This document shows, in pieces, positions 33,280-51,263 of a stretch of 64,000 bases of DNA; positions within the stretch are counted from its first letter, which is position 1, and every line of letters begins with the position of its first letter. The position numbers and the translations under genes are program-made. The notes below the pieces were generated by a model. That model was not told the DNA's origin. It did not search any database and worked only from the letters and a program-made list of their open reading frames with translations. The stretch comes from Candidatus Bathyarchaeia archaeon (lineage in GTDB: Archaea > Thermoproteota > Bathyarchaeia > Bathyarchaeales > Bathycorpusculaceae), in assembly GCA_050012755.1 (NCBI GenBank), contig JBEKGO010000004.1, positions 1 through 64,000 of the forward strand, given 5' to 3'.

Positions 33280-33363
33280 ATGTCCAATTGCAAACTCAAC
33301 AAAGGAAACACTGCATCACAGTTACTTAGCTTCGACTACTACTTTTATCGTTATTTTCCATAA
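33280..33363 (+). CDS. Putative Phe/Tyr-rich leader peptide MSNCKLNKGNTASQLLSFDYYFYRYFP
   Basis: 27-aa uORF between a TATA-like box (~33234) and Asp kinase; 7 of the last 10 codons are Phe/Tyr. Confidence 0.75.
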   Translation: MSNCKLNKGNTASQLLSFDYYFYRYFP

Positions 33364-33401
33364 GCCCAGGACTGAAAAGTTTTTTAAGAAAAGTTCTGGG
33401 C
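33364..33401 (+). promoter_or_regulatory. Stem-loop directly after the leader stop
   Basis: GCCCAGGACT(33364-73) pairs with AGTTCTGGGC(33392-401); loop contains a T6 run. Confidence 0.7.
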
Positions 33402-33420
33402 AAAGCATGGGTGTATCAAT

Positions 33421-34668
33421 ATGAAAAGGACTGGCATTTGTAAAACAATTATTGTTAAATTTGGCGGTTCTAGCCTAGCTGATCACGAGAGACTCTTAAG
33501 AGCGGTGGTCGCCGTTATGAACGAAGCCAAAAAAGGCACACGCGTCGCCGTTGTGGTTTCAGCAATGGGCAAAACAACCGATGTCCTCATGACTACAGCA
33601 AAAAATGCATCCAAGGGCAAATTAGAGAAAAAAGATTTAGATGACATACTCTCGATGGGTGAACGAACCAGCATCCGCATATTCTCAACAGCTTTAAAAA
33701 CTAACGGGGCAGAATCCTGCTACTTTGATCCAATCGATAGCAACTGGCCAATCATAACAGACGCAGCATTCCAAAATGCAAATCCAATCCTAAAAGACTG
33801 CGAGAAAAACATTCGTGAATGCGTTTTGCCAGTTATAGAGAGGGGCGTTATACCTGTGGTTGCAGGTTTTCTTGGCAAAACCAAAGATGGCAAAATTACT
33901 ACTCTTGGAAGAGGCGGAAGTGACACAACAGCGTTTGTCCTAGCTGAAGCATTGGGCGCTGACGAAATTGTCTTAGTAACGGATGCAGACGGCATAATGT
34001 CAGGCGACCCAAAGTTTGTCTCCAACCCTGAACGTCTCAGCGAAATTGACGTTAACACATTAGTTGGGCTTGCTGATTCAGGAGCTAAATTCATTCACAG
34101 CAAAGCCTTGAAGTACAAACCCAAAAACATCAACATCCGAGTAATTAACCATGCACACGGCGACCTTTCCAGAGAAGGCACAGTGATTACAGGCGCATTA
34201 GCAACAGAACTAGACGCAGAAATCGCTCATCCTTTTCCAGTCGCTGAAATAACAGTAATAGGAAACGGCATCTCCGCTAATCCAAAAATCGTTCAGGAAA
34301 TGGTTGAAAAAACTAAGCAGCACTCACTTTTGCTTGGCATGTCTATGTCTACAAACTCAATTATTCTCTATGTTTCTCAGGAGAAAAACTTAGATATGCT
34401 CCTCAACAACATTCATGACATCACTAAGAACAACAAAGAAACAATTGCAATGGCAGTCAAAAAAGACTTGGTCTTCATTAAAACAAGCGGTGTGGGCTTA
34501 GAAGAAACGCATGGCATAATTGGAAAAATCAGCGAAGACCTAAGGCTCAGCGGCATTAATATTTCGGGTATTTTGACCATAACATCCAGCATTTTGCTGT
34601 TTGTAGATTGGAATGAACGGGAGAAGGCTTTGAAGTTAATTAAAAACTCATTAAGGAGTGCTAAATAA
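33421..34668 (+). CDS. lysC: Aspartate kinase
   Basis: VKFGGSSL, VVVSAMGKTTD, TTLGRGGSDTTA, ACT domains. Confidence 0.93.
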   Translation: MKRTGICKTIIVKFGGSSLADHERLLRAVVAVMNEAKKGTRVAVVVSAMGKTTDVLMTTAKNASKGKLEKKDLDDILSMGERTSIRIFSTALKTNGAESCYFDPIDSNWPIITDAAFQNANPILKDCEKNIRECVLPVIERGVIPVVAGFLGKTKDGKITTLGRGGSDTTAFVLAEALGADEIVLVTDADGIMSGDPKFVSNPERLSEIDVNTLVGLADSGAKFIHSKALKYKPKNINIRVINHAHGDLSREGTVITGALATELDAEIAHPFPVAEITVIGNGISANPKIVQEMVEKTKQHSLLLGMSMSTNSIILYVSQEKNLDMLLNNIHDITKNNKETIAMAVKKDLVFIKTSGVGLEETHGIIGKISEDLRLSGINISGILTITSSILLFVDWNEREKALKLIKNSLRSAK

Positions 34669-34674
34669 GCAAAG

Positions 34675-35475
34675 GTGAAGAAAATGAATCAAGGAAAAAC
34701 CAGACGATTAAAACGAATCATGCAATCGGATAGTCGAACAGTAATCATACCTATGGATCATGGCGTAACGGTCGGTCCAATTCAAGGATTAGCTAACATG
34801 CAGCAAATAATCAACCAACTGCTCAAAGGCGGCGCTGATGCTGTGCTAATTCACAAGGGTATCGCTAAACATGTTGACACTGGAAATGCAGGTTTAATAG
34901 TCATGTTGTCAGGCATGTCAAATCTTAGTCCAAACATAAACGCCAAAGTACAGGTGTGCAGCGTCCAAGAAGCCATACGTTTAGGCGCAGACGCAGTTTC
35001 TGTTCACGTTAACGTTGGAGCTCAGGATGAGGACAAAATGCTGATCAATCTTGGCAAAGTAGCCGAAGAATGTGACTTATTTGGCATGCCGCTGCTTGCA
35101 ATGATGTATCCACGGGGACCCAAAATTCAAAATGAACATGCCGCTGATGTGGTAGCACATGCGGCCCGAATCGGTGCAGAACTGGGCGCAGACATCATCA
35201 AGGCAAATTTCACAGGTAACGTTGATACGTTCAAAACAGTTATCGAAAGCTGCCCTGTTCCTGTTGTGATTGCGGGAGGGCCAAAATGCAAAACTTCTCA
35301 AGAAGTTCTCCAGACCACACATGAAGCTTTAGAAGCAGGCGCTTCAGGTCTTTCAATTGGAAGGAATGTGTTTCAACATGATAATCCAACACTAATAGTC
35401 AAAGCCCTTTCTGCAATAGTTCATCAAGGCGCCAGCGTGGAACAAGCGCTTAAAATTCTCGGTGAAAAAGCTTGA
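34675..35475 (+). CDS. aroA': 2-amino-3,7-dideoxy-D-threo-hept-6-ulosonate synthase (AroA', MJ0400-like)
   Basis: Class I aldolase PMDHG, MMYPRG, AELGADIIK, GRNVFQH; adjacent to DHQ synthase II. Confidence 0.9.
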   Translation: MKKMNQGKTRRLKRIMQSDSRTVIIPMDHGVTVGPIQGLANMQQIINQLLKGGADAVLIHKGIAKHVDTGNAGLIVMLSGMSNLSPNINAKVQVCSVQEAIRLGADAVSVHVNVGAQDEDKMLINLGKVAEECDLFGMPLLAMMYPRGPKIQNEHAADVVAHAARIGAELGADIIKANFTGNVDTFKTVIESCPVPVVIAGGPKCKTSQEVLQTTHEALEAGASGLSIGRNVFQHDNPTLIVKALSAIVHQGASVEQALKILGEKA

Positions 35476-36515
35476 AGGAACTCTGGGTAGAAATAGACCA
35501 AGAGGCTTCACGGCTGGAAAAAGAAAGTTTGCTTAGCATTGCCCATGAAAATGCCGACGTAGTTCTTGAAGGTGAGCAAGCGAGTACCCGCTCAGGCAGA
35601 TTGGACATTACCTTTCTTAGTGTGCTGAACGGGCAAAAAATTGCCCTACTTAAAAATGCGAATGTAAAAAGCGCCGTAAAAATCAGCATAAAAGGCAAAA
35701 AAGACGAAAATGAAGCCGCTAAAGCCGCAGAACTCGGGGTGGATTACATAATTATTAACTGCCCTGATTGGCGAGTAATTCCCCTTGAAAACTTGATCGC
35801 AAAGGCACATGGCGGCAAGAGCAAACTGATTGCCGAAGTAACGACGGCTGAGGATGCTAAAGTGGTTCTTGAAGCCTTAGAATTGGGTACAGATGGTGTA
35901 CTGCTTAAAACTTCAAATCCAGATGAGCTTGCAAAAACTGTTAAAGTTGTTAAGGGGCAAATGCCGAAAGTTGCCCTAATAACAGGTAAAATTTTATCCA
36001 TTAAACCGATTGGCACAGGTGCAAGGGTCTGCGTGGATACTGTTGACTTAATGGTTCCTGGAGAAGGAATGCTTGTCGGCTGCCAATCTGCAGGCTTCTT
36101 CCTTGTCGAAGCTGAAGTAAACGAAAACCCCTATGTACAATCCAGACCTTTCCGAGTCAATGCTGGACCAGCATCTCATTACACGTTAACCTCGCTTCAG
36201 AACACTCGTTATCTTTCCGAATTAAAAGCGGGTGACGAGGTTTTAATTATCAACAGGGAAGGAAAAGTCAGAATAACAAATGTTGGAAGATCCAAAATAG
36301 AGTTCCGCCCCCTAATCCTCATAGAAGCCGAAGCCGACGGGACAAAAATAAAAACTATACTTCAAAACGCTGAAACAATAAGAGTAGTTACGCCGCAAGC
36401 TTCAAAACCAGTGACTGAACTAAAACCAAACGATGACGTCCTAGTGCATTTATCTGCGAAAGGAGGCCGACACTTCGGCGTATCTGTGCCTGAAGAAACG
36501 GTGATAGAAAAGTGA
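35472..36515 (+). CDS. aroB': 3-dehydroquinate synthase II (AroB', MJ1249-like)
   Basis: WRVIPLENLIA, RVCVDT, RPFRVNAG, LQNAETIR, GRHFG. Confidence 0.95.
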   Translation: MKELWVEIDQEASRLEKESLLSIAHENADVVLEGEQASTRSGRLDITFLSVLNGQKIALLKNANVKSAVKISIKGKKDENEAAKAAELGVDYIIINCPDWRVIPLENLIAKAHGGKSKLIAEVTTAEDAKVVLEALELGTDGVLLKTSNPDELAKTVKVVKGQMPKVALITGKILSIKPIGTGARVCVDTVDLMVPGEGMLVGCQSAGFFLVEAEVNENPYVQSRPFRVNAGPASHYTLTSLQNTRYLSELKAGDEVLIINREGKVRITNVGRSKIEFRPLILIEAEADGTKIKTILQNAETIRVVTPQASKPVTELKPNDDVLVHLSAKGGRHFGVSVPEETVIEK

Positions 36516-37195
36516 CCTTGAGAATCTGTGTCTCGATTCTCCCAAAAGATAATGCTGAAGCTTTAGGTCTTATTGAGCGGGCAGAGAAAGCCAAAGCAGA
36601 CTTCATTGAGGTCAGGCTAGACTGTCTTGAAACCTCCAGAATCTTATCCGAGCTCTCTAAAAGCACGAAAATCCCTCTAATTGCAACAAACAAATTGCGT
36701 AGTGAAAAAGGCAGTTTCTCTGGAACAGAAACTGAGCGTCAGCAAACGCTGCTAAACGCCGCCAAAAATGGCTTCGAATATGTTGACGTTGACCTTTCAA
36801 GTCCAAAACATAAAGAAACAATCGACAGACTCAAGCAACTGGGCGCCAAACCAATAGTTTCGTTCCACAAATCTGACGGCCCACTAAGTAGTTCTGAAAT
36901 GGGTAACATTCTAAAACAAGAAATCTCCTGCGGAGCTGCTGTATGCAAAATAGTGACAACGGCAAAAAAAATCGAAGACAACTTGACAGTGCTAGACTTC
37001 ATTTCTGCAATGCCCAGCAGGGTGAAACTTGTCTGTTTTTGCATGGGCGAAAACGGCAAGGTTTCCAGACTTCTCTCGCCGATGTTTGGTGCCTTCTTCA
37101 CTTTTGCTTCACTTGAGCGAGGCAACGAAACTGCATCGGGACAAATAAGCATCCAAGACATGAGAATTGCCTACAACCTCTTAGGAGCAAAATAA
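36512..37195 (+). CDS. aroD: Type I 3-dehydroquinate dehydratase
   Basis: EVRLD, SFH, CKIVT, FCMGENGKVSR, ASGQ. Confidence 0.93.
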   Translation: MTLRICVSILPKDNAEALGLIERAEKAKADFIEVRLDCLETSRILSELSKSTKIPLIATNKLRSEKGSFSGTETERQQTLLNAAKNGFEYVDVDLSSPKHKETIDRLKQLGAKPIVSFHKSDGPLSSSEMGNILKQEISCGAAVCKIVTTAKKIEDNLTVLDFISAMPSRVKLVCFCMGENGKVSRLLSPMFGAFFTFASLERGNETASGQISIQDMRIAYNLLGAK

Positions 37196-37197
37196 CA

Positions 37198-38055
37198 ATG
37201 GTTATCTCCGGAAAAACAAAAATTTGCGGTGTAATCGGTGACCCCATAGAACACACACTTAGCCCGATCATGCATAATGCGGCGTTTGAAGCATTGAAAC
37301 TTGATTACGTTTTTTTAGCTTTCAAAGTTGAAGTCGCTAAGGTTGGAAACGCCATAGATGGCATGCGTGCTATGGGTATTCACGGATTAAACGTTACAAT
37401 GCCCCACAAAAACTCGGTCATCAAATTCTTGGATGAATTAGACCCAACTGCCAAAACCATAGCTTCAGCCAATACAATCCTAAACAAAGATGGCAAACTT
37501 TTCGGCTTTAACACTGACGGTGTAGGTGCATTAAACGCGCTGGAGCAAAACGGCGTTGCAGTGAAAGGCAAAAAAATAATGTTGCTCGGCGCAGGCGGAG
37601 CGGCAAAAGCCATAGCATATACTCTTTCACAAGAAGCCGATGAACTGGTAATTTTGAATCGAACACCTGAGCTAGCAAAAAAGCTCGCCAATCTCTTAAA
37701 ACAAAAATTTAACAAAAAAATCAATGCAAATGCGCTTACACAAAAAACGGTCAAAGACAACCTTGCCAAAGCCGATGTAATCATTAACGCTACTTCAATA
37801 GGAATGGAACCAAACGCCGACCAAACCCCAGTAGCAGCCGAATGGTTGAAGCCTGATTTGGCTGTAATGGACATAGTTTACAACCCACTTGAAACCAAGT
37901 TGGCCAAGGATGCTAAAGCGGCAGGCGCCAAAGTGGTAAGCGGGGTTGAAATGCTAATTTATCAGGGAGCTGCCTCGTTTGAAATCTGGACTGCTTGCAA
38001 GGCGCCTGTTGAAGTTATGAGGAAGGCGGCGCTTAATCACTTGTTAAAGGTGTAA
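37198..38055 (+). CDS. aroE: Shikimate dehydrogenase
   Basis: HTLSPIMHN, NVTMPHK, NTDG, GAGGAAKA. Confidence 0.96.
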   Translation: MVISGKTKICGVIGDPIEHTLSPIMHNAAFEALKLDYVFLAFKVEVAKVGNAIDGMRAMGIHGLNVTMPHKNSVIKFLDELDPTAKTIASANTILNKDGKLFGFNTDGVGALNALEQNGVAVKGKKIMLLGAGGAAKAIAYTLSQEADELVILNRTPELAKKLANLLKQKFNKKINANALTQKTVKDNLAKADVIINATSIGMEPNADQTPVAAEWLKPDLAVMDIVYNPLETKLAKDAKAAGAKVVSGVEMLIYQGAASFEIWTACKAPVEVMRKAALNHLLKV

Positions 38056-38928
38056 ATGTTGACTGGTAAAGCTACGGCTATAGCTCATGGCGCGGCAACA
38101 ATCGTTAATGCAATTGCACTCGGAAAAGGCGCAGCTTTTGGAGTTGACTTGTGGACTAAAGCTGAAGTCAAATTGACATCCGAACCGCACGTCTTCGAAG
38201 CCGAAATCATATCCGACCCAAAAGAAAGTACAGTTCTAATTGAAAAAACAGTATCTAGAGTCCTTCAAAAGTTCAGTTTAGATAAGAAGTTCGGTGCAAA
38301 AATAAAGACTTGGTCAAATATTCCAATCGCCAAAGGACTGAAAAGTAGCAGTGCGGCGGCAAACGCGGTAGCTCTCGCATCGGTAGCGGCATTAGGGAAA
38401 ACGCTTGACGACTTAGAAGTTGTAAAGTTAGGTGTCGAGGCTGCTTTTGACTCAAAAGTGACGGTAACCGGCGCTTTTGATGATGCTTGTGCTTCATATT
38501 TTGGCGGTTTTGTGATTACTGATAATTTGAGTCGTGAAGTAGTTAGTAAGTTACCTTTTGCAGAAGACTTATTGGTGTTGTTTCATGTGCCCCCAGAAAA
38601 AGCTTACACAGCAGATTCCAACGTTAAGCGGCTGCAAACAATAAAACCGCTCGTCGAGGTAGCTTACAAAGAGGCTTTAGCCGGAAACATTTGGGGGGCG
38701 TTGACACTGAACGGCTTGATTTACTCATCAGCATCAGGATACAACCCTGCAGTGGCGATAGACGCTTTGGCTGCTGGAGCATTAGCGGCTGGATTATGCG
38801 GCAAAGGACCAGCAGTAACAGCAGTAACTCCTAAAGACAAGGTTGATTCAGTTAAAGAGGCTCTGCAAAAGTACAACGGTGAAATCTTGCAAGCCCATTT
38901 GAACCATGAGAAAGCCAAGGTGCTCTAA
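38056..38928 (+). CDS. aroK: Archaeal (GHMP) shikimate kinase
   Basis: IVNAIALGKG, GLKSSSAAANA, TGAFDDA. Confidence 0.93.
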   Translation: MLTGKATAIAHGAATIVNAIALGKGAAFGVDLWTKAEVKLTSEPHVFEAEIISDPKESTVLIEKTVSRVLQKFSLDKKFGAKIKTWSNIPIAKGLKSSSAAANAVALASVAALGKTLDDLEVVKLGVEAAFDSKVTVTGAFDDACASYFGGFVITDNLSREVVSKLPFAEDLLVLFHVPPEKAYTADSNVKRLQTIKPLVEVAYKEALAGNIWGALTLNGLIYSSASGYNPAVAIDALAAGALAAGLCGKGPAVTAVTPKDKVDSVKEALQKYNGEILQAHLNHEKAKVL

Positions 38929-38930
38929 CA

Positions 38931-40235
38931 ATGACAGATGTAATCATCAAGAAAACAGAAAAATTAAGTGGCGAAGTATGTGCCCCCCCGTCAAAATCCT
39001 ATACACAGAGAATGCTCATAGCCGCTGCTTTATCAAACGGAATATCCAAGATATCTAATCCTCTCTTATCAGAAGACACCAAAGCAACCCTGCGCGCCAC
39101 AACGGCTCTAGGTGCAAAGGTAGCAACGGATGAGGATTGCTGGACAGTTACAGGCGCAAGCCCTCTTACGAATGCCAAAGAACCTATCGACTGCGGAGAA
39201 TCAGGTGCAACGTTGCGTTTCATGATCCCGGTAGCAGCATTAACATCCGACCCTTCAACTTTGATTTTTGGCGGTTCACTTGAACGCAGACCCATTGAAC
39301 CCTTAATCAAAAGTTTAGATGACCTTGGCGCAAATGTGCGTATGAAGAAACTTGGCAACAAAGACGCTGTGTTTGTTACGGGCGGCGGTATTCTTGGAGG
39401 CGAAACCTCTATTCCCGGAGATGTGAGCTCACAGTTTATTTCTGGATTAATGTTCGCTTGTCCAATGGCAAAAGTGGATACGGAAATCGCTTTAACATCG
39501 CCTCTTGAATCTGCAGACTACGTCAAAATGACTTGGGACGTGCTAGCTAAACATGAAATCAGAATAGAAGTTCACGACAACTATAGACTCATTCACATTC
39601 CAGCCAACCAAACTTACAAGCCATTTGACTCCAAGGTGCCAGGCGATTTTTCCTCCTCAGCATTTCTACTTGCTGCCTCAGCCATAACCTCTTCAAATGT
39701 CCAAATTCGCAATCTTGAATATGCTAGCCCTCAAGGAGACAAGGCGATTCTAGGCATCCTCAAGCAAATGGGCATCGTGGGAAGAGTTTGTGAAAACAGC
39801 GTTGAGATAAATGGAACGGGCAATACTCTTGAACCCCTTAATGTTGATGCAAAAAATATTCCTGATTTAGTTCCCGTATGTGCAGTGCTTGCATGCTTCG
39901 CAAAAGGCACTTCGAAAATCACGGGCGCGCAACGGCTTAAACTCAAGGAGTCGGACAGGTTGAAGTCGTTGCATCTTGAGTTGAGAAAGATGGGCGCGAA
40001 AATAAAAGTGGATTCAAGCGGCTTAACCATTGAAGGTCCCTGTAACTTGCATGGTGCAGTGATTAATCCGCATAATGACCACCGAATAGCAATGGCGTGT
40101 GCGGTTGCAGCTTTAGGTGCAAAAAACCAAACCACAATTCAAAACGCAGAATGCGTTAGAAAGTCTTATCCGCAGTTCTTCACTCATCTAAAACAAATAG
40201 GAGCTGAAATTGTTGGCGGGAAATTCGATAGGTAA
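38931..40235 (+). CDS. aroA: EPSP synthase
   Basis: PPSKS, SSQFISG, KESDR, DHRIAM, KSYP. Confidence 0.96.
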   Translation: MTDVIIKKTEKLSGEVCAPPSKSYTQRMLIAAALSNGISKISNPLLSEDTKATLRATTALGAKVATDEDCWTVTGASPLTNAKEPIDCGESGATLRFMIPVAALTSDPSTLIFGGSLERRPIEPLIKSLDDLGANVRMKKLGNKDAVFVTGGGILGGETSIPGDVSSQFISGLMFACPMAKVDTEIALTSPLESADYVKMTWDVLAKHEIRIEVHDNYRLIHIPANQTYKPFDSKVPGDFSSSAFLLAASAITSSNVQIRNLEYASPQGDKAILGILKQMGIVGRVCENSVEINGTGNTLEPLNVDAKNIPDLVPVCAVLACFAKGTSKITGAQRLKLKESDRLKSLHLELRKMGAKIKVDSSGLTIEGPCNLHGAVINPHNDHRIAMACAVAALGAKNQTTIQNAECVRKSYPQFFTHLKQIGAEIVGGKFDR

Positions 40236-41325
40236 AGAATTCACAGTAACCACTTTCGGCGAAAGCCACGGTAAAATTGTCGGCGTAGTCGTCGATGGAT
40301 GCCCAGCGGGATTGCCTCTTTCTGAAGCTGACATTCAAATAGACTTAGATAGGCGTATTCCAGCGGAGCCAAAAATTGTTTCAGGACGAATTGAGAAAGA
40401 CACCGCCAAAATATTGTCAGGAATTTTTAACGGTTTTACCACTGGCGCCCCAATTGCTATGACGGTTGAGAATCGGGAGGTTGACTCAAGCGATTACGAA
40501 GCAATCAAGGATTTGCCCCGACCAGGGCACTCAGATTACCCAGCTGGCGTAAAATATGGTGGCTTTCAGGATTATCGAGGTGGCGGGCGCTTCTCAGGGA
40601 GAGTTACAGTGGCGCTCATCATGGCTGGAGCGGTAGCAAAAAAACTGCTTAGCCGATTTGATGTTGACGTGTTAGCGTACACTACAGCAATTGGCCAAGT
40701 CAAAACTGACAAAAAGTTTAGTGCAGAAGAAATCCGAAAGAACAGGTACTCAGCGTCCACGCGGTGTCCCGACTTTGCCTGTGCAGAAAAAATGGAGCAA
40801 GCCATTGTGGAGGCTAGGAGAGAAGGCGAAAGTGTTGGCGGAATAGTTGAATGTATGGCGTTAAATGTTCCAGTCGGGGTTGGAGAACCAATGTTTGACT
40901 CGCTTGACGCTGATTTAGCGAAAGCGTTGTTTAATGTTCCCGCTGTAAAAGCAGTTGAGTTCGGGTTAGGTTTTGAGATTGCAGAATTAAAAGGTTCTGA
41001 AAGTAATGATACGTTTATCATGCAAAGCGGAAAAGTCGCTACTTCAACGGAAAATATGGGCGGAATCCTGGGCGGCTTATCCAATGGTATGCCCATTATA
41101 ATGCGGATAGCAATTAAACCGACGCCTTCAATTGGCAAAGAGCAGAAAACCGTTAACCTTTCAACTATGAAAGCTGCTGGTCTGAGTGTTAAGGGAAAGC
41201 ATGATCCCTGTGTTGTTCCAAAAGCCGTACCAGCTGTGGAAGCTGCGGTCGCAGTGACTTTAGCTGACCATATGATTCGAGCGGGCTTTATACCGAAAGT
41301 TCTGGAGAGACAGAAAAATGGATGA
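40210..41325 (+). CDS. aroC: Chorismate synthase
   Basis: FGESHG, PRPGHSD, RGGGRFSGR, KPTPSI, GKHDPC. Confidence 0.96.
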   Translation: MLAGNSIGKEFTVTTFGESHGKIVGVVVDGCPAGLPLSEADIQIDLDRRIPAEPKIVSGRIEKDTAKILSGIFNGFTTGAPIAMTVENREVDSSDYEAIKDLPRPGHSDYPAGVKYGGFQDYRGGGRFSGRVTVALIMAGAVAKKLLSRFDVDVLAYTTAIGQVKTDKKFSAEEIRKNRYSASTRCPDFACAEKMEQAIVEARREGESVGGIVECMALNVPVGVGEPMFDSLDADLAKALFNVPAVKAVEFGLGFEIAELKGSESNDTFIMQSGKVATSTENMGGILGGLSNGMPIIMRIAIKPTPSIGKEQKTVNLSTMKAAGLSVKGKHDPCVVPKAVPAVEAAVAVTLADHMIRAGFIPKVLERQKNG

Positions 41326-41578
41326 AATCCAACAATTACGAAAAAAAGTTGATGAAATTGACGAGCAAATCATAACTGCCCTACGCGAAAGAACGAAAAC
41401 ATGTAGCGCCATTGGATTTATTAAGAAAAAGAAGGGCTTACCGGTAAGGGACGTTGCCCGAGAAAACGAGGTTTTTAAACGGATGAATGAAAAAGCTCTA
41501 GAATTTCACCTTAATCCCTTGCAAGTTGAAGCAGTTTACCGCGAAATAGTTAATATGTGCAGTGCTATTCAGGAGTAA
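41318..41578 (+). CDS. Chorismate mutase (AroQ type)
   Basis: LRKKVDEIDEQII..RER..IG..K..RE. Confidence 0.9.
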   Translation: MDEIQQLRKKVDEIDEQIITALRERTKTCSAIGFIKKKKGLPVRDVARENEVFKRMNEKALEFHLNPLQVEAVYREIVNMCSAIQE

Positions 41579-43640: not shown

Positions 43641-44456
43641 CTAGATTGTTTTAGGGTATGAACCTAAGATTTTGACAAAAATCGCGTATTTCTCAAGAGC
43701 TGTTAATGCCTCGCAACATTTAGCTTCGCTTCGGTGTCCCTCAAAGTCTAGGTAAAAATTATATTCCCATGCTGTTTTTTTTGTTGGTCTGGATTCGATT
43801 TTTGTCAGGTTGATGTTTCGTTTGGCGAATTCTCCGAGTGCATGGTAGAGTGAGCCTGGCTCATGTTTGGCTGAGAAGATTATGCTGGTTTTGTCTTTGC
43901 CTGTAGGTGCCGCGTCTTCTGTGTATAACACAAAGAAGCGGGTGTAGTTTTCAAGGTTATCTGCAATGTCCTTGGCGAGGATGTGCATGCCGTAAATGTT
44001 TGCTGCTCTTTCACTGGCGATTGCGGCGGCGTTTTTGAGGTTTTTTTCCTTGATCATTTTAACGCTGCCAGCGGTGTCGTAGGTGGGTATGAGTTCGCGT
44101 CCAAAATCTTCAAGGAAGCTTCGGCATTGCCCAAGAGCTTGTGGATGCGAATAAACCATTTTTATGTCTTCCAAAGATGTGCCGGGGTTTGCGATGAGGC
44201 AATGTTCAATTTTGAAAATTACTTCAGCGCAGACTTTTAAATCATAACGTAGAAAAAGGTCATAATTCTGAGGCACGCTGCCTTCTAAGCTGTTCTCAAT
44301 TGGAACAATGCCAAATTGGGTTTTTTGTGTGCATACGCTGTCAAAAACATCCTTGAAGTCTTTGCAGGGATTGACTTTGGTTTTTGCGCCGAAGAATTGG
44401 AAGGCTGCGCCTTCGCTGTATGCGCCTGGTTCGCCTTGGAAGGCTACGGTTTTCAC
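43641..44456 (-). CDS. pheA: Prephenate dehydratase
   Basis: PIENSLEG, SHPQALGQC, NYTRF, IESRP, LGSYP. Confidence 0.96.
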   Translation of the reverse strand: MKTVAFQGEPGAYSEGAAFQFFGAKTKVNPCKDFKDVFDSVCTQKTQFGIVPIENSLEGSVPQNYDLFLRYDLKVCAEVIFKIEHCLIANPGTSLEDIKMVYSHPQALGQCRSFLEDFGRELIPTYDTAGSVKMIKEKNLKNAAAIASERAANIYGMHILAKDIADNLENYTRFFVLYTEDAAPTGKDKTSIIFSAKHEPGSLYHALGEFAKRNINLTKIESRPTKKTAWEYNFYLDFEGHRSEAKCCEALTALEKYAIFVKILGSYPKTI

Positions 44457-45976
44457 TTTTTGTTTCCCTGCGTATGATTCTTTATCAGCAGCTTGTTTAT
44501 ACCGTTTATCATTGCTTCAACGCTTGCCATTACTATGTCTTCTCTGGCTGCGCGTGCGGAAACGATGTTGCCTTTTTCGTCTTCGACTTTTATGACGACT
44601 TCTGCGACTGCATTTGAGCCACCTGTGATGGCTTCAAGTCGATACTCACTTAGCCGTATGTTTTCTAGGTTGTTGGTTAATTTCTGTATGGCTTTTAGAA
44701 CTGCGTCAACTGGCCCTACTCCAGTTTCGGCGGCGATGTATTCTTTTCCGTTTAAGGTTAGTCTGACTGAGGCTGTTGGGATTACTTTGATGCCAGTTAC
44801 GACTGCCAAGTCGCACAAGTCAACGATTTTTTCTTCGCCGATTACTTGACCCATAACAGAGGAAGTTAACGCCAGCAAATCGGCATCCGTTACCATCTTA
44901 CCCTTGTCGCCTAATTCTTTGACCCGCTTCACAATCTCTTTTAGCTGCTCCTCAGATGCGTGAATGCCTATTTCTTCCAGTTCTGCTTTGATTCCTCGCG
45001 TTCCCGCCAACTTTCCCGCAACCAATTTTCTTGTGCGGCCAACCAATTCGGGTTTTATCGGCTCAAAAGTTAACGGCTTCTCAGTAACACCGCGAGTGTG
45101 AATTCCTGATTCATGGGCAAAAGCGTTTTCGCCTACAATTGCCTTGTTTGCCTGTACCGCTATACCAGTTAATGAAGCAACCAAACGCGACGTGCTGTAC
45201 AGTAATCGGGTGTTTACTCCTGTCTTGTACTTGTAGATTTCATGTAACGCCATAACTACTTCTTCCAACGAAGCATTTCCAGCGCGCTCACCTAAGCCGT
45301 TAACGGCAACGTGAACCTGAGAGGCGCCGGCTTCGATAGCGGCTAATGAGTTGGCAACTGCCAAGCCGAAGTCATCATGGCAATGAGTGCTTATCGGAAC
45401 CTTAACTACCGTTCTTAGTTCCTCAATTAGCTTGATGGTTGTTTTGGGAATCATTATACCTACGGTGTCTGGTACGTTTAGGCTGTCCATGCCTGCTTTT
45501 TCGGCGGCTTGACACACCTGTTTCAGAAAGGGCATTTCAGAGCGTGTAGCATCCATGGGTGAAAACTCACATTTCAACCCGTGTTTTTTCACGTATTCTA
45601 TAGAATCCACAGTGGAAGACAATACTTGTTGGGGTGTTAAGTTTACTGCATATTTCATTTGGACAGTCGATGTTGGAATGAAAACGTGTACTAGGCCAAC
45701 GTCGCAGTCGATTGCTGCATCAATATCGCCTTTTGTTGCTCGGGATAAAGCGCAGATTTCAGAGGTTAAGCCTGCTTTTGCTATGTCTTTGACTACTTTT
45801 TTTTCGCCTTCGGAAGAACTGGGAAAACCGGCTTCGATTGTGTCGACTCCTAACTTGTTTAGTTGGAGTGCGATCTCCATCTTATCATCTGAAGTTAAAG
45901 AAACTCCAGGGGTCTGTTCTCCATCTCTTAGTGTTGTGTCAAAAATTCGGATACGTCTTGAGGTTTTACCTGTCAT
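44453..45976 (-). CDS. leuA: 2-isopropylmalate synthase / citramalate synthase family
   Basis: DTTLRDGEQ, HCHDDFG, GERAGN, HESGIH, regulatory domain GPVDA. Confidence 0.88.
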   Translation of the reverse strand: MTGKTSRRIRIFDTTLRDGEQTPGVSLTSDDKMEIALQLNKLGVDTIEAGFPSSSEGEKKVVKDIAKAGLTSEICALSRATKGDIDAAIDCDVGLVHVFIPTSTVQMKYAVNLTPQQVLSSTVDSIEYVKKHGLKCEFSPMDATRSEMPFLKQVCQAAEKAGMDSLNVPDTVGIMIPKTTIKLIEELRTVVKVPISTHCHDDFGLAVANSLAAIEAGASQVHVAVNGLGERAGNASLEEVVMALHEIYKYKTGVNTRLLYSTSRLVASLTGIAVQANKAIVGENAFAHESGIHTRGVTEKPLTFEPIKPELVGRTRKLVAGKLAGTRGIKAELEEIGIHASEEQLKEIVKRVKELGDKGKMVTDADLLALTSSVMGQVIGEEKIVDLCDLAVVTGIKVIPTASVRLTLNGKEYIAAETGVGPVDAVLKAIQKLTNNLENIRLSEYRLEAITGGSNAVAEVVIKVEDEKGNIVSARAAREDIVMASVEAMINGINKLLIKNHTQGNKK

Positions 45977-45980
45977 TTTT

Positions 45981-47018
45981 TCAACCAGTTTTCGCAGTTA
46001 AAGCTGCAGCAATGGCTTCTGCCATTCCAACCGTCGTGGTTTTGCCGCCGCAGTCTGGAACAGATTGACGATTACTCAGAGCATACACTACCCCATTCTC
46101 TATTGCGCTACCTGCTTGTAAGCATTTTTTGTCGTTGTATTTTTCACCCAACCACTCCAGCATCATCTTTGCAGATAATATCATTGAGATTGGGTTCGCA
46201 GTGTGTTTTCCTGCCCTGTTTGGTGCTGAACCATGGATAGGTTCGAAAAGCGCAAAGTTGTCGCCAACGTTAGCGCCTGGAGCCATGCCTAAGCCGCCGA
46301 TTTGCTGAGCTGCTTCATCTGAGAGAATATCACCGAACATGTTGCATGTGCAGAAGACATCAAACACCTGTGGTTCCTTTATCAGACGCATAGATGCTGC
46401 ATCAACATATAACTCGTCAAAGGCGATGTCTGGGTACCGTTTCGCTGTTTCACGGCATACACTTGCGAATAATCCGTCGGTCACTCGCATAACGTTGGCT
46501 TTGTGTATAGCGGTTACCTTCTTTTTGCCGTTGCGTAAACGGGCAATCTCGAAGGCTTTCTTGGCTATGCGTTCACAATTTCCTCTGGTGATAACCCGCA
46601 TGCATACGGTTGTATCGTTGCCTATCGTAAATTCTAAGCCTTTGTAAACGTCCTCGGTGTTTTCCCGAACAAACATCATGTCAATGTCTGGTCTTGCAAC
46701 AGGAACGTTGGGATAAGCTTTCAAAGGACGCAGATTAGCATATAAATCGAACATTACTCTGAGCTTTACTATGACGTCAGCTGCGGTTTCGCCTACTGGT
46801 CCTTTTAGGCAGGCATGGGATTGTTTGATTTTTTGCACTGTGTCTTCTGGTAGTGCGGCGCCTCTTTTAGCTAGGGTCGCATCGCCAGCCTCTGCCTCGA
46901 TAATTTGCAGTTTTACTCCGAATTTTTTCTGTGCGGAATCTAAGACTTTTAGGGTGGCTTCGGTTAATTCTGGTCCGATGCCGTCGCCTGGGATTAAAGA
47001 TATTTTGTATTCTGTCAT
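45981..47018 (-). CDS. leuB: 3-isopropylmalate dehydrogenase family
   Basis: GDGIGPE, RENTE, NMFGDILSDEAA, EPIHGSAP. Confidence 0.88.
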   Translation of the reverse strand: MTEYKISLIPGDGIGPELTEATLKVLDSAQKKFGVKLQIIEAEAGDATLAKRGAALPEDTVQKIKQSHACLKGPVGETAADVIVKLRVMFDLYANLRPLKAYPNVPVARPDIDMMFVRENTEDVYKGLEFTIGNDTTVCMRVITRGNCERIAKKAFEIARLRNGKKKVTAIHKANVMRVTDGLFASVCRETAKRYPDIAFDELYVDAASMRLIKEPQVFDVFCTCNMFGDILSDEAAQQIGGLGMAPGANVGDNFALFEPIHGSAPNRAGKHTANPISMILSAKMMLEWLGEKYNDKKCLQAGSAIENGVVYALSNRQSVPDCGGKTTTVGMAEAIAAALTAKTG

Positions 47019-47518
47019 TTTTTGTTTATTCTCCTTCGTAAGTTTTCGATTAATCCGCCGTCTACCAATATTTCGATGATGAATGGTGGTAGCTTGTCTA
47101 CTTGAAACTTTTTGCCTTTTGAAACATTTTCTATCTTGCCCACCTCAAAATCCACGGCTAATTCATCGCCTGTTTCAACCGCTGCTGATATCCCCTTACA
47201 CTCGATCACTGGCAAGCCAATGTTTATTGCGTTTCGGAAGAAGATTCGAGCGAAAGATTCGGCTAAAACGCATTTTACGCCTGCATATTTCAGGGCTAAA
47301 GGAGCTTGTTCTCGGCTTGAACCGCAACCAAAGTTTTTGCCCACAACTATGATTACGCCTTTTTTTGCTTTTTCAGGAAACACGGGGTCTAAACCTGCCA
47401 AAGCGTGTTTAGCTAACTCGTAAGGGTCAACCAACGTCATATATTGTCCAGGCAGAATAACGTCTGTGTCAACGTTGTTTCCTAATTTTATGGCTGGTCC
47501 TTTGATTTTCATGTTCAT
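47015..47518 (-). CDS. leuD: 3-isopropylmalate dehydratase small subunit
   Basis: VDTDVILP, NFGCGSSREQA, FARIFFRNAINIG. Confidence 0.92.
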   Translation of the reverse strand: MNMKIKGPAIKLGNNVDTDVILPGQYMTLVDPYELAKHALAGLDPVFPEKAKKGVIIVVGKNFGCGSSREQAPLALKYAGVKCVLAESFARIFFRNAINIGLPVIECKGISAAVETGDELAVDFEVGKIENVSKGKKFQVDKLPPFIIEILVDGGLIENLRRRINKK

Positions 47519-48783
47519 GCTTTTGCCTCCAGAGTTCTTGGGTCAGTGATTTTTCCTGTCACAGCTGAAGCGGCTACCGTTGCTGGAGACGCTAGGTATA
47601 CGCTGGCTTGGGTGCTGCCCATTCTTCCAATAAAGTTTCTGTTTGAAGTGCTGACACATGCTTCGCCTGCTGCCAGCAACCCTATGTGTCCGCCTAAGCA
47701 CGGACCGCACGCTGAACCGCACACTATTGCGCCAGAATCAGTGAAAATTTCCAGTAAACCTTCGTTTAATGCCTGCTTGTAAACTTCCTGGGACGCTGGA
47801 ATAACTAATGCTCTAACGCCGTCTTTCACGTGTTTGCCTTTTATGACTTGGGCAGCTAAGCGTAGGTCTTCGATTCTGCCATTGGTGCATGAACCAATAA
47901 ACGCCTGTTCGATTGGAACGTTGCCTACTTTTGAAACGGGCTTTACATTGTCAACTGATGATGGACAAGCTATTTGTGGCTCCATCTTTGAAACATCAAA
48001 TTCGACGGTTCGCGCGTAATGGGCGTCTTTATCGCTTTTCAATGCGTCAAAATCGGGTAATGTTTTTACTCTGCCATCCAAAAATTTACGAGTTATTTCA
48101 TCTGGTTCGATGATGCCGTTTTTGGCGCCCATTTCCACAGCCATGTTACACAGAGTCATTCTTCCCGCTATGCTCATGGCCTTTATTGTTGGACCTGTGA
48201 ATTCTGCGGCTTCGTATATGGCACCGTCGACACACATTCGACCAATTATTGATAAGATTAAATCTTTTGGAGTAACAAAGTTTGGAAACTGACCAGTTAC
48301 GTTTATTTTTACTGTTTCCGGCACTTTCAACCAGATTTTTCCAGTGGCAAAAACCGCTGCTGCTTCGGTTGAACCTATGCCTGTGGCGAAAGCGCCGAAG
48401 GCTCCATAAGTGCAAGTATGCGAATCAGCGCCTACAATTACTGTACCTGGAACTACATGTCCTTTTTCAGGCATAACTTGATGGCAAATTCCGCCTCTCC
48501 CAATATCATATAAGCGCAGTTTTTGGTCTTTGGCGAATTGACGCATAGTCTTATGCAGTTCAGCCGCCTTAACCGATTCAGCTGGAACCTGATGGTCCAG
48601 TATTACCACTGCTTTTTGGTTATCCCAAACTTTTTGTACGCCTATTTTTTTAAAGGCTTCGACAGCTAGAGGTCCAGTTAAATCGTGCACCATTATCATG
48701 TCTACTTTTGCAGACACAATTTCGCCTGGGTGCACAACATCTTTTCCTGAAGCTTTAGCCAAGATTCTTTCTGTAATGTTCAT
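47515..48783 (-). CDS. leuC: 3-isopropylmalate dehydratase large subunit
   Basis: GADSHTCT, GSCTNGR, CGPCLG, NRNF.GRMG. Confidence 0.92.
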   Translation of the reverse strand: MNITERILAKASGKDVVHPGEIVSAKVDMIMVHDLTGPLAVEAFKKIGVQKVWDNQKAVVILDHQVPAESVKAAELHKTMRQFAKDQKLRLYDIGRGGICHQVMPEKGHVVPGTVIVGADSHTCTYGAFGAFATGIGSTEAAAVFATGKIWLKVPETVKINVTGQFPNFVTPKDLILSIIGRMCVDGAIYEAAEFTGPTIKAMSIAGRMTLCNMAVEMGAKNGIIEPDEITRKFLDGRVKTLPDFDALKSDKDAHYARTVEFDVSKMEPQIACPSSVDNVKPVSKVGNVPIEQAFIGSCTNGRIEDLRLAAQVIKGKHVKDGVRALVIPASQEVYKQALNEGLLEIFTDSGAIVCGSACGPCLGGHIGLLAAGEACVSTSNRNFIGRMGSTQASVYLASPATVAASAVTGKITDPRTLEAKA

Positions 48784-48831
48784 TGTTCGTTCTCTCTTTT
48801 ACAATAATTACTTTGAGGAATACATCATAAA

Positions 48832-48855
48832 CGGTTTCTCATTTTTGAGAAACCG
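48832..48855. promoter_or_regulatory. Perfect inverted repeat between ilvN and leuC
   Basis: CGGTTTCTCA-TTTT-TGAGAAACCG. Confidence 0.55.
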
Positions 48856-48886
48856 AAAGTTAAGCGTTTCCGTTCAAAGAAACGAT

Positions 48887-49399
48887 TTATTCGTCTATTC
48901 TTACTGTTTTTGCTCCTCTTGCCAACGCAGTGATGCCTGTTCTTGCAAGCTCAATGACACCGTGTGTTTTCATTAGGTTTAGGAATGCGTCTAATTTGTC
49001 TGGGGTTCCTGTAATCTCAACGGTTAAGCTGTCCATTGACACGTCTATGATTCGTCCTCTGAAGACTTCTACGCAGTTTATAATGTCTGAACGTTCTTTA
49101 GGTGTTGGCACGTTAACTTTTATTAAAGCTAATTCCCGCATGACAAAGTGTCCCGGCTCTAACTCCTCTACTTTTAGCACATCAATCAGTTTTGCTAGTT
49201 GCTTAACGACTTGTTCAAGTGTTTTTTCGTCGCCATTTACCGTGATTGTCATGCGTGCAACTTCGCTGTTTTGGCTTGGTCCAACTGTGATGCTTTCAAT
49301 GTTGAAGTTTCTGCGTCTAAATAAGTTAGATACGCCATGGAGAACACCGGGCTTATTTTCAACCAGCACAGAAATTGTTTTTGTTTGTCCTGTTTCCAT
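48887..49399 (-). CDS. ilvN: Acetolactate synthase small subunit
   Basis: VENKPGVL..LFRRRNFNIESITVG, ELARTG. Confidence 0.95.
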   Translation of the reverse strand: METGQTKTISVLVENKPGVLHGVSNLFRRRNFNIESITVGPSQNSEVARMTITVNGDEKTLEQVVKQLAKLIDVLKVEELEPGHFVMRELALIKVNVPTPKERSDIINCVEVFRGRIIDVSMDSLTVEITGTPDKLDAFLNLMKTHGVIELARTGITALARGAKTVRIDE

Positions 49400-51111
49400 T
49401 AGTAGTCACCTCTCTGTTGTGGTAAACCGCAGCCTGGAGGCACGAATGGAACGACATCCTGTTCTGAACCAATAGGCACATCGATTACCGTTGTAACATC
49501 GCTTTTTAGCGCTGTCTTAACTGCTTTTTGGAATTCTTCAATTGAGTTTGCCCGCAGACCTTGCGCTCCATAGGCTTCTGCCAACTTTACCATGTCAGGT
49601 GTTTTCCCTAAGTTAACTGCCATGTAACGTCGATGGTAGAGCATTCTTTGCCACTGCGCCACCATGCCTAACACTGAATTATTTAGCACTATGACTATGA
49701 CAGGAATCTTTTCAGTTACAGAGCATGCTAGTTCTTGCTCAGTCATTATGAAACTGCCGTCGCCAGCTATGTCCACCACAGGTCTATCTGGGCAAGCAAC
49801 TTTTGCTCCTATAGCCGCAGGAAAACCGAAGCCCATGGTTCCGAGTCCCCCTGAGCTGATGAAGGTTCTCGGTTTTAATGCTTGGAAATATAGCGCTGAC
49901 CACATCTGGTTTTGACCAACTTCAGTGGTGACTACTGCATTTTCCGGCAGCAGTTTTCTCAATTCCGTAAGTAGCGCTTTTGGCACTAAATCTTTGGGTC
50001 TGTCTTTTAGCAGTGGGCTCAGCTGTTCCTTTGCCTCTTTAACCCGTTTTGTCCAAGCAACGCCTTCTTTTTTGTGCAATTTACTTGTTAAGGCGGTGTG
50101 CAGCATTTTCAAAGAGGCTTTTGCATCGCCAACTATGGGTACATCAACTTCAACGTTTTTACCTATTTCTGCTGCATCAATGTCAACGTGAATTTTTTTA
50201 GCATGAGCAGCGAATGTATCTAAGTTTGCCGTTGCTCGGTCAGAGAATCTTGTTCCAACCGCTAACAGCACGTCGGCTTCACCAATCAACCGGTTTGCAG
50301 CAGGGTTTCCATGCATTCCGATACTTCCAACTGATAAGGGGTGGCCTTCAGGGAATGCGCCTTTACCCATGAACGTTGTTGCTACAGGTGCCATAAGTAA
50401 ATCTGACATTTCCATAAGCTCGTCAGAAGCATTTGAGATTATGACTCCGCCGCCTGCCAATATGAACGGTTTTTCGGCGTTTGAGAGTAGTTTAGCAGCT
50501 TCGCTGATCTTAGCCAAATCTGGATCCATTACGGGTTTATAGCCTCGGGCTTCAATGTTCTCTGTAATTCCTAAATCTACTTCAGCGGTGTCTGACTGAA
50601 CGTTTTTTGGTAGGTCAATTAGAACTGGTCCTGGCCTGCCTGAGGACGCGATGTAAAAAGCGGCGTTAACCATCGGTTGGATTTCGGCGATTGTTCTTGG
50701 CTGATAATTGTGTTTAGTGATTGGGGTGGTGATGCCAATGATGTCTGCTTCTTGGAAGGCGTCTCTGCCAATCATGTAGGAAGAGTTTGCGCTTGCCGTT
50801 GGAACCTGCCCTGTTAAAGCTATCATAGGTGAGGAATCCATGTATGCATTTGCTATTCCAGTAACTAGGTTTGTTGCTCCAGGCCCTGAAGTTGCCATGC
50901 ATACTCCGACTCGTCCGCTGGCTCTGGCATATCCTTCAGCTGCATGTGCTGCTCCCTGCTCATGTCGAGCTAGAATATGCCTAATTTTCTCGTTACCGCA
51001 TAACGCATCGTATACTGGCAGGATCGCTCCGCCTACAATGCCGAATATAACGTCTACGTTTTGTTGTTCAAGGGATTCTAATAGCACTTTTGCACCAGAC
51101 ATTTTGGTCAT
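49399..51111 (-). CDS. ilvB: Acetolactate synthase large subunit
   Basis: RHEQGA, TSGPGATN, GGLGTMGFG, GDGSF..NN TPP motif. Confidence 0.96.
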   Translation of the reverse strand: MTKMSGAKVLLESLEQQNVDVIFGIVGGAILPVYDALCGNEKIRHILARHEQGAAHAAEGYARASGRVGVCMATSGPGATNLVTGIANAYMDSSPMIALTGQVPTASANSSYMIGRDAFQEADIIGITTPITKHNYQPRTIAEIQPMVNAAFYIASSGRPGPVLIDLPKNVQSDTAEVDLGITENIEARGYKPVMDPDLAKISEAAKLLSNAEKPFILAGGGVIISNASDELMEMSDLLMAPVATTFMGKGAFPEGHPLSVGSIGMHGNPAANRLIGEADVLLAVGTRFSDRATANLDTFAAHAKKIHVDIDAAEIGKNVEVDVPIVGDAKASLKMLHTALTSKLHKKEGVAWTKRVKEAKEQLSPLLKDRPKDLVPKALLTELRKLLPENAVVTTEVGQNQMWSALYFQALKPRTFISSGGLGTMGFGFPAAIGAKVACPDRPVVDIAGDGSFIMTEQELACSVTEKIPVIVIVLNNSVLGMVAQWQRMLYHRRYMAVNLGKTPDMVKLAEAYGAQGLRANSIEEFQKAVKTALKSDVTTVIDVPIGSEQDVVPFVPPGCGLPQQRGDY

Positions 51112-51212
51112 TTCATGGTCTCCATTTATTGAAATTAACTTCTATACTCTCGTCTCGAAAAGTTTGGTTTGTATTTGTAATAATAGATTTTTCAGAGGGT
51201 TGCCTGGGCGAA

Positions 51213-51263
51213 TCACAGAATAAGTACCCGATGATCCCAGCTATTGAGGTGACGATCCCTCAT
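51213..51263 (-). CDS. Putative branched-chain amino acid leader peptide MRDRHLNSWDHRVLIL
   Basis: 16-aa uORF with GAGG SD, ends Val-Leu-Ile-Leu, stop ~100 nt upstream of ilvB. Confidence 0.7.
   Translation of the reverse strand: MRDRHLNSWDHRVLIL

Follow-up and report, generated by a model that had tools for sequence, protein, structure and literature searches.

Does the recurrence of the same two sequence words directly after the stop codons of two short leader open reading frames (ORFs) reveal a common regulatory signal? The question is raised by a 64,000-nucleotide (nt) stretch of DNA from Candidatus Bathyarchaeia archaeon (positions 1 to 64,000, forward strand, of contig JBEKGO010000004.1, assembly GCA_050012755.1; hereafter the window). 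In this window a leader ending in aromatic codons precedes a shikimate (aro) operon on the plus strand, and a second leader precedes an ilv/leu operon on the minus strand. A first-pass annotation had noted GCCCAGG followed by CTGAAAA after both leader stops and had proposed a common cis element, such as a pause, cleavage or factor-loading signal, belonging to a lineage-specific attenuation mechanism distinct from the bacterial terminator/antiterminator switch. We consider it likely that the shared words are strands of two unrelated, separately conserved helices, both of which fall by chance just after a leader stop, and that the aro leader is sensed by ribosomes.

The study genome, G000 in our numbering, is a Bathyarchaeia archaeon assembly of 65 contigs and 2,408,866 bases. 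Counts given for the genus refer to its close relatives, which are hence not independent of one another. All structures described below rest on prediction and conservation, and the gene calls used by our scripts were crude, being the longest ORFs.

Distribution of the shared words

The sequences themselves were as first described. In the aro leader the stop codon TAA (33361-33363) is followed at once by GCCCAGG (33364-33370), an A (33371) and CTGAAAAG (33372-33379) on the plus strand. In the ilv leader TGA (51215-51213) is followed by TTC, GCCCAGG (51209-51203), a 7-base spacer and CTGAAAAA (51195-51188) on the minus strand. Each word taken alone is at background in the window, GCCCAGG with 5 occurrences for 4.34 expected and CTGAAAA with 30 for 24.97 expected. 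The composite pattern GCCCAG-N0-10-CTGAAAA, which we scanned in the window, the whole genome and 25 genus genomes, matches twice in the window, where 0.03 matches are expected and none of 100 shuffles reached two; the same two leader sites are its only matches in the genome. From the genomic word counts (701 for GCCCAG and 1088 for CTGAAAA) we calculate that chance alone would place about 1.7 composite sites in a genome. The composite count is ordinary, and the unusual part is that both sites lie directly after leader stop codons. Among random pairs of intergenic 32-nt windows of the study genome, 175 of 400,000 (4.4e-4) had two ordered 7-mers in common, and 5.8% had a single shared 7-mer.

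Conservation of the words differs between the leaders. We parsed 104 aro loci, of which 99 fitted the leader pattern and 98 kept the ORF, giving 80 distinct leaders; the ilv alignment comprised 23 genus loci. The composite is kept in 33 of the 80 aro leaders, the first word being GCCCAGA in 54 and GCCCAGG in 21, and it is kept in a single ilv leader, that of G000. Among the 23 ilv leaders GCCCAG is found in 8 and CTGAAAA in 3, with TTCCAG, TCACAG, TTATAG and others in place of GCCCAG. Nor does the composite recur where a general signal might be sought, since in the study genome it is absent upstream of hisG, the trp operon, ilvD and ilvC. The 25 genus genomes hold 49 matches, of which 7 are in aro leaders, 1 is in the ilv leader of G000 and 41 are elsewhere (35 within open frames 150 codons or longer, 5 where no stop codon adjoins the match, and 1 uninspected). 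A scan of the genome and its relatives, the check suggested with the original proposal, thus gave no third site in the genome and, among the genus matches inspected, no copy in any other leader. A relaxed pattern, GCCCAG-N0-20-CTGAAA, had nine genomic matches, and the one preceded by TAA (C2:100063) was set aside as it lies inside a 4.2-kb ORF.

Stems of the form GCCCAG..CTGGGC are found outside coding sequence at only two places in the genome, the aro leader and C32:8055, and stems of the form CTGGG..CCCAG are mostly tRNA T-arms. The C32 site (contig C32, 8055-8091) is an intergenic hairpin, flanked by unrelated genes and without a leader ORF, whose outer arms (GCCCAGAA...CTGGGC) are those of the aro hairpin.

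Structural context of the two copies

The two copies of the words do not share a structural context. In the aro leader GCCCAGG lies in the 5' arm of a predicted hairpin and pairs downstream; in the ilv leader it lies in a 3' strand and pairs upstream. The aro CTGAAAA is mostly loop, apart from two initial bases that belong to the 5' arm; the ilv CTGAAA is paired within a different helix, P1.

The aro hairpin begins 0 nt after the stop, with a one-base overlap with the stop codon in some species. Its arm GCCCAGGACT pairs with AGTTCTGGGC over 10 bp (-17.2 kcal/mol; z -2.99; 2 of 200 shuffles fold equally well), and CTGAAAAG is loop-side filler before a T6 run. RNAalifold gives nine pairs with one compensatory change. 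Over the 80 distinct leaders the loop measures 16 to 21 nt and holds a run of at least four T in 77 and of at least five in 66; CTGAAAA, which runs from the last bases of the 5' arm into the A-rich opening of the loop, is present in 33.

For the ilv leader, RNAalifold and single-sequence folding gave three helices. P1 joins AGAGG and the preceding U-run to the post-stop CCUCU-G-AAA, with CCUCUGAAA predicted to pair with the Shine-Dalgarno (SD) region of the leader's own mini-ORF; P2 lies within the mini-ORF; and P3 contains the GCCCAGG copy. P3 is paired in 93.9% of cells over the 23 sequences. One of its pairs changes from GC to AU on both sides in three sequences, and the remaining changes are C-to-U replacements that keep G-U pairs. 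Such a three-helix structure is plausible.

These contexts bear directly on the proposal of a common recognition, pause, cleavage or loading signal, used for example by aCPSF1/FttA or an RNA-binding regulator in several amino-acid leaders. That proposal accounts for the position of both genomic copies directly after leader stops. It can also appeal to the same GCCCAG/CUGGGC duplex in both leaders, though looped at opposite ends, and to a statement in PMC8716108 that aCPSF1 cooperates with the U-tract. We nevertheless think it improbable, given the loss of the composite from most aro leaders and from every ilv leader except that of G000, its absence before his, trp, ilvD and ilvC, the lack of any further leader copy in the 25 genus genomes, and the fact that the only other noncoding stem of this kind is the unrelated one on C32. 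The idea of a common cis element is not supported: the copies pair in opposite directions, most leaders have lost the composite, and it recurs before other amino-acid operons neither in the genome nor among the matches inspected in relatives. The motif is unfit to be carried forward as a regulon signal.

In the study genome we read the double match as most likely a coincidence, judging from the sequences, because sharing at the level of the consensus comes down to CCCAGR, and a single shared 7-mer is expected in 5.8% of random window pairs. Coincidence was presumably helped because both leaders put a G+C-rich helix strand beside the stop codon and A/U-rich sequence after it. On the predicted structures, what the leaders have in common is solely a principle, the placing of a helix strand beside the stop codon so that a terminating ribosome must melt it. 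Several facts tell against this reading. The frequency of 4.4e-4 for random windows makes pure chance uncomfortable, CCCAGR followed by CUR-AA is kept in both leader consensuses, and both leaders have an A-run and then a U-rich stretch downstream. Covariation in the genus is also thin: the aro hairpin has one compensatory pair, and the ilv covariation score was reached by 38 of 500 shuffles. In stability the ilv fold does not exceed shuffled sequence (z -1.14; 25 of 200 shuffles were equally good).

It is also possible, although we doubt it, that the resemblance is convergent. In that case both leaders would need a G+C-rich clamp after the stop that is melted by the ribosome, followed by an A-rich/U-rich pause or terminator, and the words would be no recognition site. 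In both leaders a helix strand begins 0 to 6 nt after the stop; the aro loop has its A-run followed by at least four T in nearly all leaders, the ilv leaders keep A-run/T-run blocks with a T4-6 run before ilvB, and the random-window frequency leaves room for a non-random cause. However, the sequence of a clamp would be free to differ, and the aro hairpins of other families do use unrelated arms. Further, the his leader described below has no such strand after its stop, and ilv variants replace GCCCAG by other words. Coincidence therefore remains the reading that we prefer.

The aromatic leader and its hairpin

The aro leader stands apart from the question of the shared words, and we consider it best read as a ribosome-sensed attenuator, which we infer from its anatomy and conservation. 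The same arrangement precedes the aspartate kinase gene in all 24 genus genomes compared: TATA-like block, small ORF, stop, hairpin, SD-like GGGTG and gene. We take the block at 33233..33240 to be a putative promoter element by its likeness to the archaeal consensus. An SD-like AGG lies 8 nt ahead of the leader ATG. The N-terminal half of the ORF is variable over the 24 loci and the C-terminal half is aromatic, the peptide ending SFDYYFYRYFP in G000. In each of the 80 distinct leaders the last 12 codons hold six to nine Phe, Tyr or Trp codons (259 F, 362 Y and 2 W overall).

A separate positional and codon tally was made over 83 distinct leaders. Phe occupies position -2 in 80 of them, Tyr position -3 in 65 and Pro position -1 in 55. 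A TYCGARG word lies upstream in 77 of the 83, and in 62 a G-rich SD-like word begins 7 nt past the 3' arm of the hairpin. Synonymous variation is seen at the Tyr codons (TAT 229, TAC 140), as in translated sequence, which suggests that the leader is translated. A single Phe codon behaves otherwise. In the Ser-Phe-Asp word it is TTC in all 82 leaders in which that word was found, against 173 TTT and 93 TTC for the Phe codons of the aromatic block overall. This codon pairs in a helix, P1 of the aro leader, and the fixing of TTC only there points to a constraint at the RNA level.

Searches for further leaders of this kind were made in two ways. The exact aro pattern, consisting of Phe-Tyr codons, stop and both hairpin arms, was found in 90 stretches of one-genome-per-species contigs, and 70 of the 80 matches listed are titled Bathyarchaeota or Bathyarchaeia. 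One match, in a Firmicute (L073), has no ORF and was discarded as a chance match. Five records (L068, L072, L082, L112 and L135) carry a Bathyarchaeia aro leader under the titles Sulfotelmatobacter, Methanocella, Nanoarchaeia, Acidoferrum and Limnocylindrales, and these are probably mis-binned contigs. A general scan for small-ORF leaders was too noisy to use, with 5,390 candidates and 419 left after filtering by composition. When a perfect hairpin after the stop was also required, 15 remained, and the aro leader is the only one of these upstream of an amino-acid operon. A Thr-rich small ORF before 30454, which precedes an OMP decarboxylase gene, was dropped as chance.

Contigs assembled from RNA libraries of relatives run through the region. 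Those of runs X4 (33275-33465) and X3 (33322-33578), from two studies, pass from the leader through the hairpin into the gene, and those of a third run, X2 (33280-33425), span the stop. Likeness to the window is 90 to 99% for X2 to X4 and 85 to 99% over all four RNA-library contig sets. These are assembled contigs that give no 3' ends, strand or level and may include DNA. Six RNA runs contain 5 to 9% of the sampled words.

Conservation beyond the genus

A class-level sample of 151 genomes contained 56 with an aspartate kinase match at E <= 1e-90. Upstream stretches were fetched for 40 of the 56, all outside the genus, and 39 were sufficiently long; gene starts in these distant genomes are estimates from alignments. 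A small ORF with at least five aromatic residues in its last 12 codons was found in 27 of the 39 regions. We then combined three features, namely the aromatic tail, a stop codon 35 to 90 nt ahead of the gene, and an adjoining hairpin of -11 kcal/mol or better beginning no more than 8 nt from the stop. All three were present in 26 of the 39 regions and in none of 39 reverse complements or 390 shuffles. The hairpins of different families have unrelated arm sequences, which indicates that structure and position are kept rather than words. Two families had no aromatic leader upstream of a close aspartate kinase homologue (f26, 0 of 7; f34, 0 of 4; loci L195-L200, L203, L204, L217, L218 and L220), and one f15 locus was borderline.

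In some of these families the hairpin would be linked to the next gene in a way not seen in G000. When the first 15 nt after the stop of L215 (G076:C3) are blocked, the 3' arm pairs at 10 of 10 positions with the SD region of the aspartate kinase gene (-16.5 against -20.0 kcal/mol). Shorter SD pairings appear on blocking in L026, L027, L216 and L224. The complementarity of the 3' arm to the SD region in these loci implies that the 5' arm mimics the SD region, in the manner of ermC.

The hairpin might be a mere stabilising or processing element of the 5' untranslated region, or a bidirectional terminator, with the aromatic ORF unsensed. It is strong and invariant in the genus, and translation of the ORF is deduced from sequence, both of which suit such a role. 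We think this very unlikely, as the upstream gene is divergent (32299-33129, minus strand) and leaves nothing to terminate, the Tyr codons vary synonymously, and the aromatic tail, stop position and hairpin occur together in 26 of 39 distant genomes and in 0 of 429 controls.

A possible mechanism for the aro leader

Coupled transcription and translation is accepted for archaea, and a ribosome whose A site holds a stop codon covers about 12 nt beyond it. We propose that the position of the ribosome on the aro leader decides whether the hairpin folds. With Phe and Tyr plentiful, ribosomes would reach the stop, cover the whole 5' arm and hold the hairpin open. With charged tRNA-Phe or tRNA-Tyr scarce, they would stall at codons -10 to -5, leaving the 5' arm free and the hairpin able to fold. 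Because the operon is biosynthetic and folding would occur in starvation, the folded hairpin would have to be the ON state. A Pro-stop context slows termination in bacteria, and Pro before the stop would prolong occupancy of the 5' arm by the ribosome. The SD pairing in L215 and, more weakly, in the four other families fits a folded-hairpin ON state in silico, as the folded hairpin in such families would keep the 3' arm off the aspartate kinase SD.

In the genus of G000 the output would have to differ. There the folded hairpin may shield the loop U-tract from termination or cleavage, possibly with aCPSF1/FttA, and the open state would expose it. A tract of at least five U lies between leader and gene (T6, 33380-33385), with a putative role in termination. 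The U-tract is already behind the polymerase when the 3' arm is made, so that control of this kind would be limited to events that are delayed or depend on a factor. The shielding step is the weakest of the scheme and is one that we purely infer.

Three observations count against this proposal. First, blocking of the 5' arm in the genus of G000 produces no SD-sequestering helix; whether or not the arm is blocked, the SD (33409-33413) stays unpaired in the predicted folds, and no competing helix was found there, the best alternative reaching -4.2 kcal/mol. Second, a model in which the hairpin is a terminator gives the opposite logic, and several families have a U-run after the hairpin (U3-6 in L201, L206, L215, L192 and L216). 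A hairpin plus U-run acting as terminator would turn the operon off in starvation, unless only stalls at the last two aromatic codons count. Third, the RNA-library contigs come from relatives and only bridge leader and gene.

Taken together, these data lead us to a wider proposal on whose truth we are evenly divided. The Bathyarchaeia shikimate operon would be under a minimal form of ribosome-mediated attenuation, in which a single hairpin governs a U-tract or an SD. It would be the first archaeal leader-peptide attenuator, present in at least ten families of the class, and the his and ilv leaders would form a second, unrelated type of leader, a structured RNA around a mini-ORF beginning MRD.

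Comparison with known systems

Bacterial attenuators such as E. coli trpL, pheL and hisL resemble the aro leader in having a short ORF with end-product codons upstream of a biosynthetic operon, regulatory codons toward the C terminus, a helix at the stop and a ribosome whose position decides folding. The E. coli pheL peptide ends Phe-Pro-stop, as do many aro leaders of the genus, 55 of 83 having Pro at -1. The aro leader differs in its archaeal host, its one hairpin in the genus of G000, its U-run within the loop and its first gene, the aspartate kinase of the archaeal shikimate route. Two defining features of the bacterial class were not found in the genus of G000. There are no mutually exclusive terminator and antiterminator helices, the predicted elements being the single post-stop hairpin and P1, and there is no terminator of the hairpin-then-U-run kind, the T-run being in the loop. 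These two absences in the study genome set the aro leader apart from bacterial attenuators; its sensing half is like theirs, and we regard it as a variant of the class rather than a member. A lineage-specific attenuation unlike the bacterial switch, as first proposed, would thus fit the anatomy and conservation of the aro leader, and it does not stand as the function of a motif common to both leaders.

Other known systems match parts of the proposal. In translational attenuation of ermC and cat, a ribosome on the leader picks the pairing that hides the next SD. This fits L215 and, weakly, L026, L027, L216 and L224; the trigger here would be amino-acid supply rather than a drug, and the SD of G000 is never paired. 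In the tna operon a ribosome at the TnaC stop gates the access of Rho, and we propose a like control of a putative termination factor for the loop U-tract, although the aro leader has no arrest peptide or ligand. Passages in two papers (PMC8716108 and PMC11616081) give the main archaeal termination signal as a run of 5 to 8 U, assisted by aCPSF1/FttA. The aro leader agrees with this in having at least five T between leader stop and gene in 66 of 80 leaders, and differs in placing the U-run within the loop of a 5'-leader hairpin.

A 2021 paper states in one passage that no attenuation was known in archaea (PMC8448881). The open-access and bioRxiv literature on archaeal leader peptides, attenuators and upstream ORFs, with subscription journals outside its scope, gave bacterial or eukaryotic cases only. 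The aro leader, with its seven to nine Phe/Tyr codons and a hairpin at the stop, is a concrete and testable attenuator candidate. If the proposal is true, the leader could show how an archaeal polymerase that terminates at U-tracts reads the position of the ribosome. It also yields a simple rule with which to search for more leaders, that is, end-product codons at the C terminus of a small ORF and a hairpin immediately after.

The ilv and his leaders

The conserved ilv leader covers about 95 nt. Its 16-codon mini-ORF begins MRD, 7 or 8 bases after the SD-like AGAGG, in the 23 genus loci. Codons 1 to 13 are nearly fixed at all three positions, and the last three vary (LIL, QLL, QLF, HFY, PRN and others). 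Elsewhere in the order, six of seven loci from other families retain the beginning of the element, with ATG or GTG and different peptide tails. The leader had earlier been labelled as an ilv leader from a tail rich in Ile, Leu and Val. That description suits part of the genus and fails for the rest and for other families, the enrichment being unclear as it is confined to the last three or four codons. A reading of the leader in the +1 frame, rich in Ile and Val, was discarded since a stop immediately precedes it and it lacks a start codon.

A related element precedes hisG (Pfam HisG) outside the window, at about 41594-41800 of contig C8 on the minus strand. Its mini-ORF opens with the same nine bases as that of ilv, ATGAGGGAT, and encodes MRDCVHTRRLRSLEAIQNV in the study genome. 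The element is present in all 25 genus loci (24 genomes plus G000), one with a changed second codon, and in three of five loci of other families, with GTG (his loci L155-L182). Between families its His, Arg and Leu codons change synonymously (CAT/CAC, CGA/CGG and TTG/CTA/TTA), suggesting that the peptide is translated. In the RNAalifold prediction, his codons 1 to 13 form a hairpin of 14 pairs, with the start codon paired to a CAU. With ATG or GTG, the nine-base word occurs 16 times in the genome, and only the ilv and his copies precede biosynthetic operons. Each of the two leaders repeats a word 19 to 21 nt apart and has SD-like and anti-SD-like boxes with more than one possible pairing. By sequence, the two look like one family of archaeal leader elements. 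Neither GCCCAG nor CTGAAAA follows the stop of the his leader, and this speaks further against a general signalling role for the motif.

The ilv block, together with the related his block, might be a DNA operator for a transcription factor, with GCCCAGG as a flanking sequence. Conservation of the first 40 nt of the ilv block extends to all three codon positions, two copies of a 9-nt word are spaced by 21 bp, equal to two helical turns, and the RNA fold is no more stable than shuffles. We regard an operator as unlikely, however. The ilv block sits some 55 to 95 nt past the TATA box, a long way for an archaeal repressor, and the SD-like word and the ATG or GTG start are kept across families. The codons of the his mini-ORF change synonymously between families, and the C-to-U changes in P3 keep G-U pairs, which RNA alone tolerates. 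A T-box-like display of codons by the repeats was also rejected, as GGGAU occurs in both leaders whatever the pathway and the his leader has its two CAU words in frames that differ.

Gene content and other features of the window

The features discussed are listed in Table 1. Rfam found no match in the window at gathering score other than two tRNAs, and its best matches at the aro, ilv and his leaders were at chance level (E 0.63 to 4.3).

Table 1. Positions of leader elements, operons and tRNA genes
Feature	Positions	Strand	Basis or remark
tRNA gene	10650-10723	-	Rfam, above threshold
tRNA gene	11771-11855	+	Rfam, above threshold
TATA-like box of aro promoter, preceded by purine-rich stretch like a B recognition element (BRE)	33233..33240	+	Near-invariant in 24 genus loci
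aro P1, 5' strand, between leader SD-like AGG and ATG	33269..33276	+	RNAalifold and single-sequence minimum-free-energy folds
aro leader ORF, 27 codons plus TAA, MSNCKLNKGNTASQLLSFDYYFYRYFP	33280..33363	+	Read directly
aro P1, 3' strand, in Ser-Phe-Asp codons	33328..33335	+	Predicted pairing
aro hairpin, 5' arm including GCCCAGG, 0 nt after stop	33364..33373	+	Predicted helix
aro hairpin, loop: most of CTGAAAAG plus T6 run (33380-33385)	33374..33391	+	First two bases of CTGAAAAG in 5' arm
aro hairpin, 3' arm, ending CTGGGC	33392..33401	+	Invariant or wobble-compatible in 24 genus loci
SD-like GGGTG of aspartate kinase gene	33409..33413	+	Unpaired in every fold
aro operon	33421..43558	+	Pfam hits and ORF list
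ilv/leu operon: ilvB, ilvN, leuC, leuD, leuB, leuA-like, prephenate dehydratase	43641..51111	-	Pfam hits
CCTCT and CTGAAAA, ilv P1 3' strand, pairing with SD region and U-run upstream	51189..51198	-	Predicted fold
ilv GCCCAGG; 51208-51204 are P3 3' strand, pairing upstream	51203..51209	-	Predicted fold
ilv mini-ORF, 16 codons plus TGA, MRDRHLNSWDHRVLIL	51213..51263	-	16 codons in 23/23 genus loci
ilv P3, 5' strand, CUGGG, codons 8-10	51236..51240	-	Predicted fold
ilv P2, GAGG with CCUC, within mini-ORF	51245..51262	-	Invariant in 23/23, uninformative for covariation
SD-like AGAGG of ilv mini-ORF, P1 5' strand	51271..51275	-	Pairs with CCUCU in 18-23 of 23 per pair
TATA-like box of ilv/leu promoter	51309..51316	-	TTTTTAT invariant in 23/23 genus loci

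By Pfam, the ten genes of the aro operon are, in order, aspartate kinase, a DeoC-type aldolase (ADH-synthase-like), DHQ synthase II, DHQase, shikimate dehydrogenase, a GHMP-type kinase, EPSP synthase, chorismate synthase, an aminotransferase and prephenate dehydrogenase. The archaeal shikimate route uses aspartate semialdehyde as a precursor, which would explain aspartate kinase as the first gene. The two operons converge: the ilv/leu operon ends with prephenate dehydratase, of the Phe branch (43641-44456, minus strand), which faces prephenate dehydrogenase (42683-43558, plus strand). With prephenate dehydratase placed there, the Phe branch would fall under the ilv leader and not under the Phe/Tyr leader.

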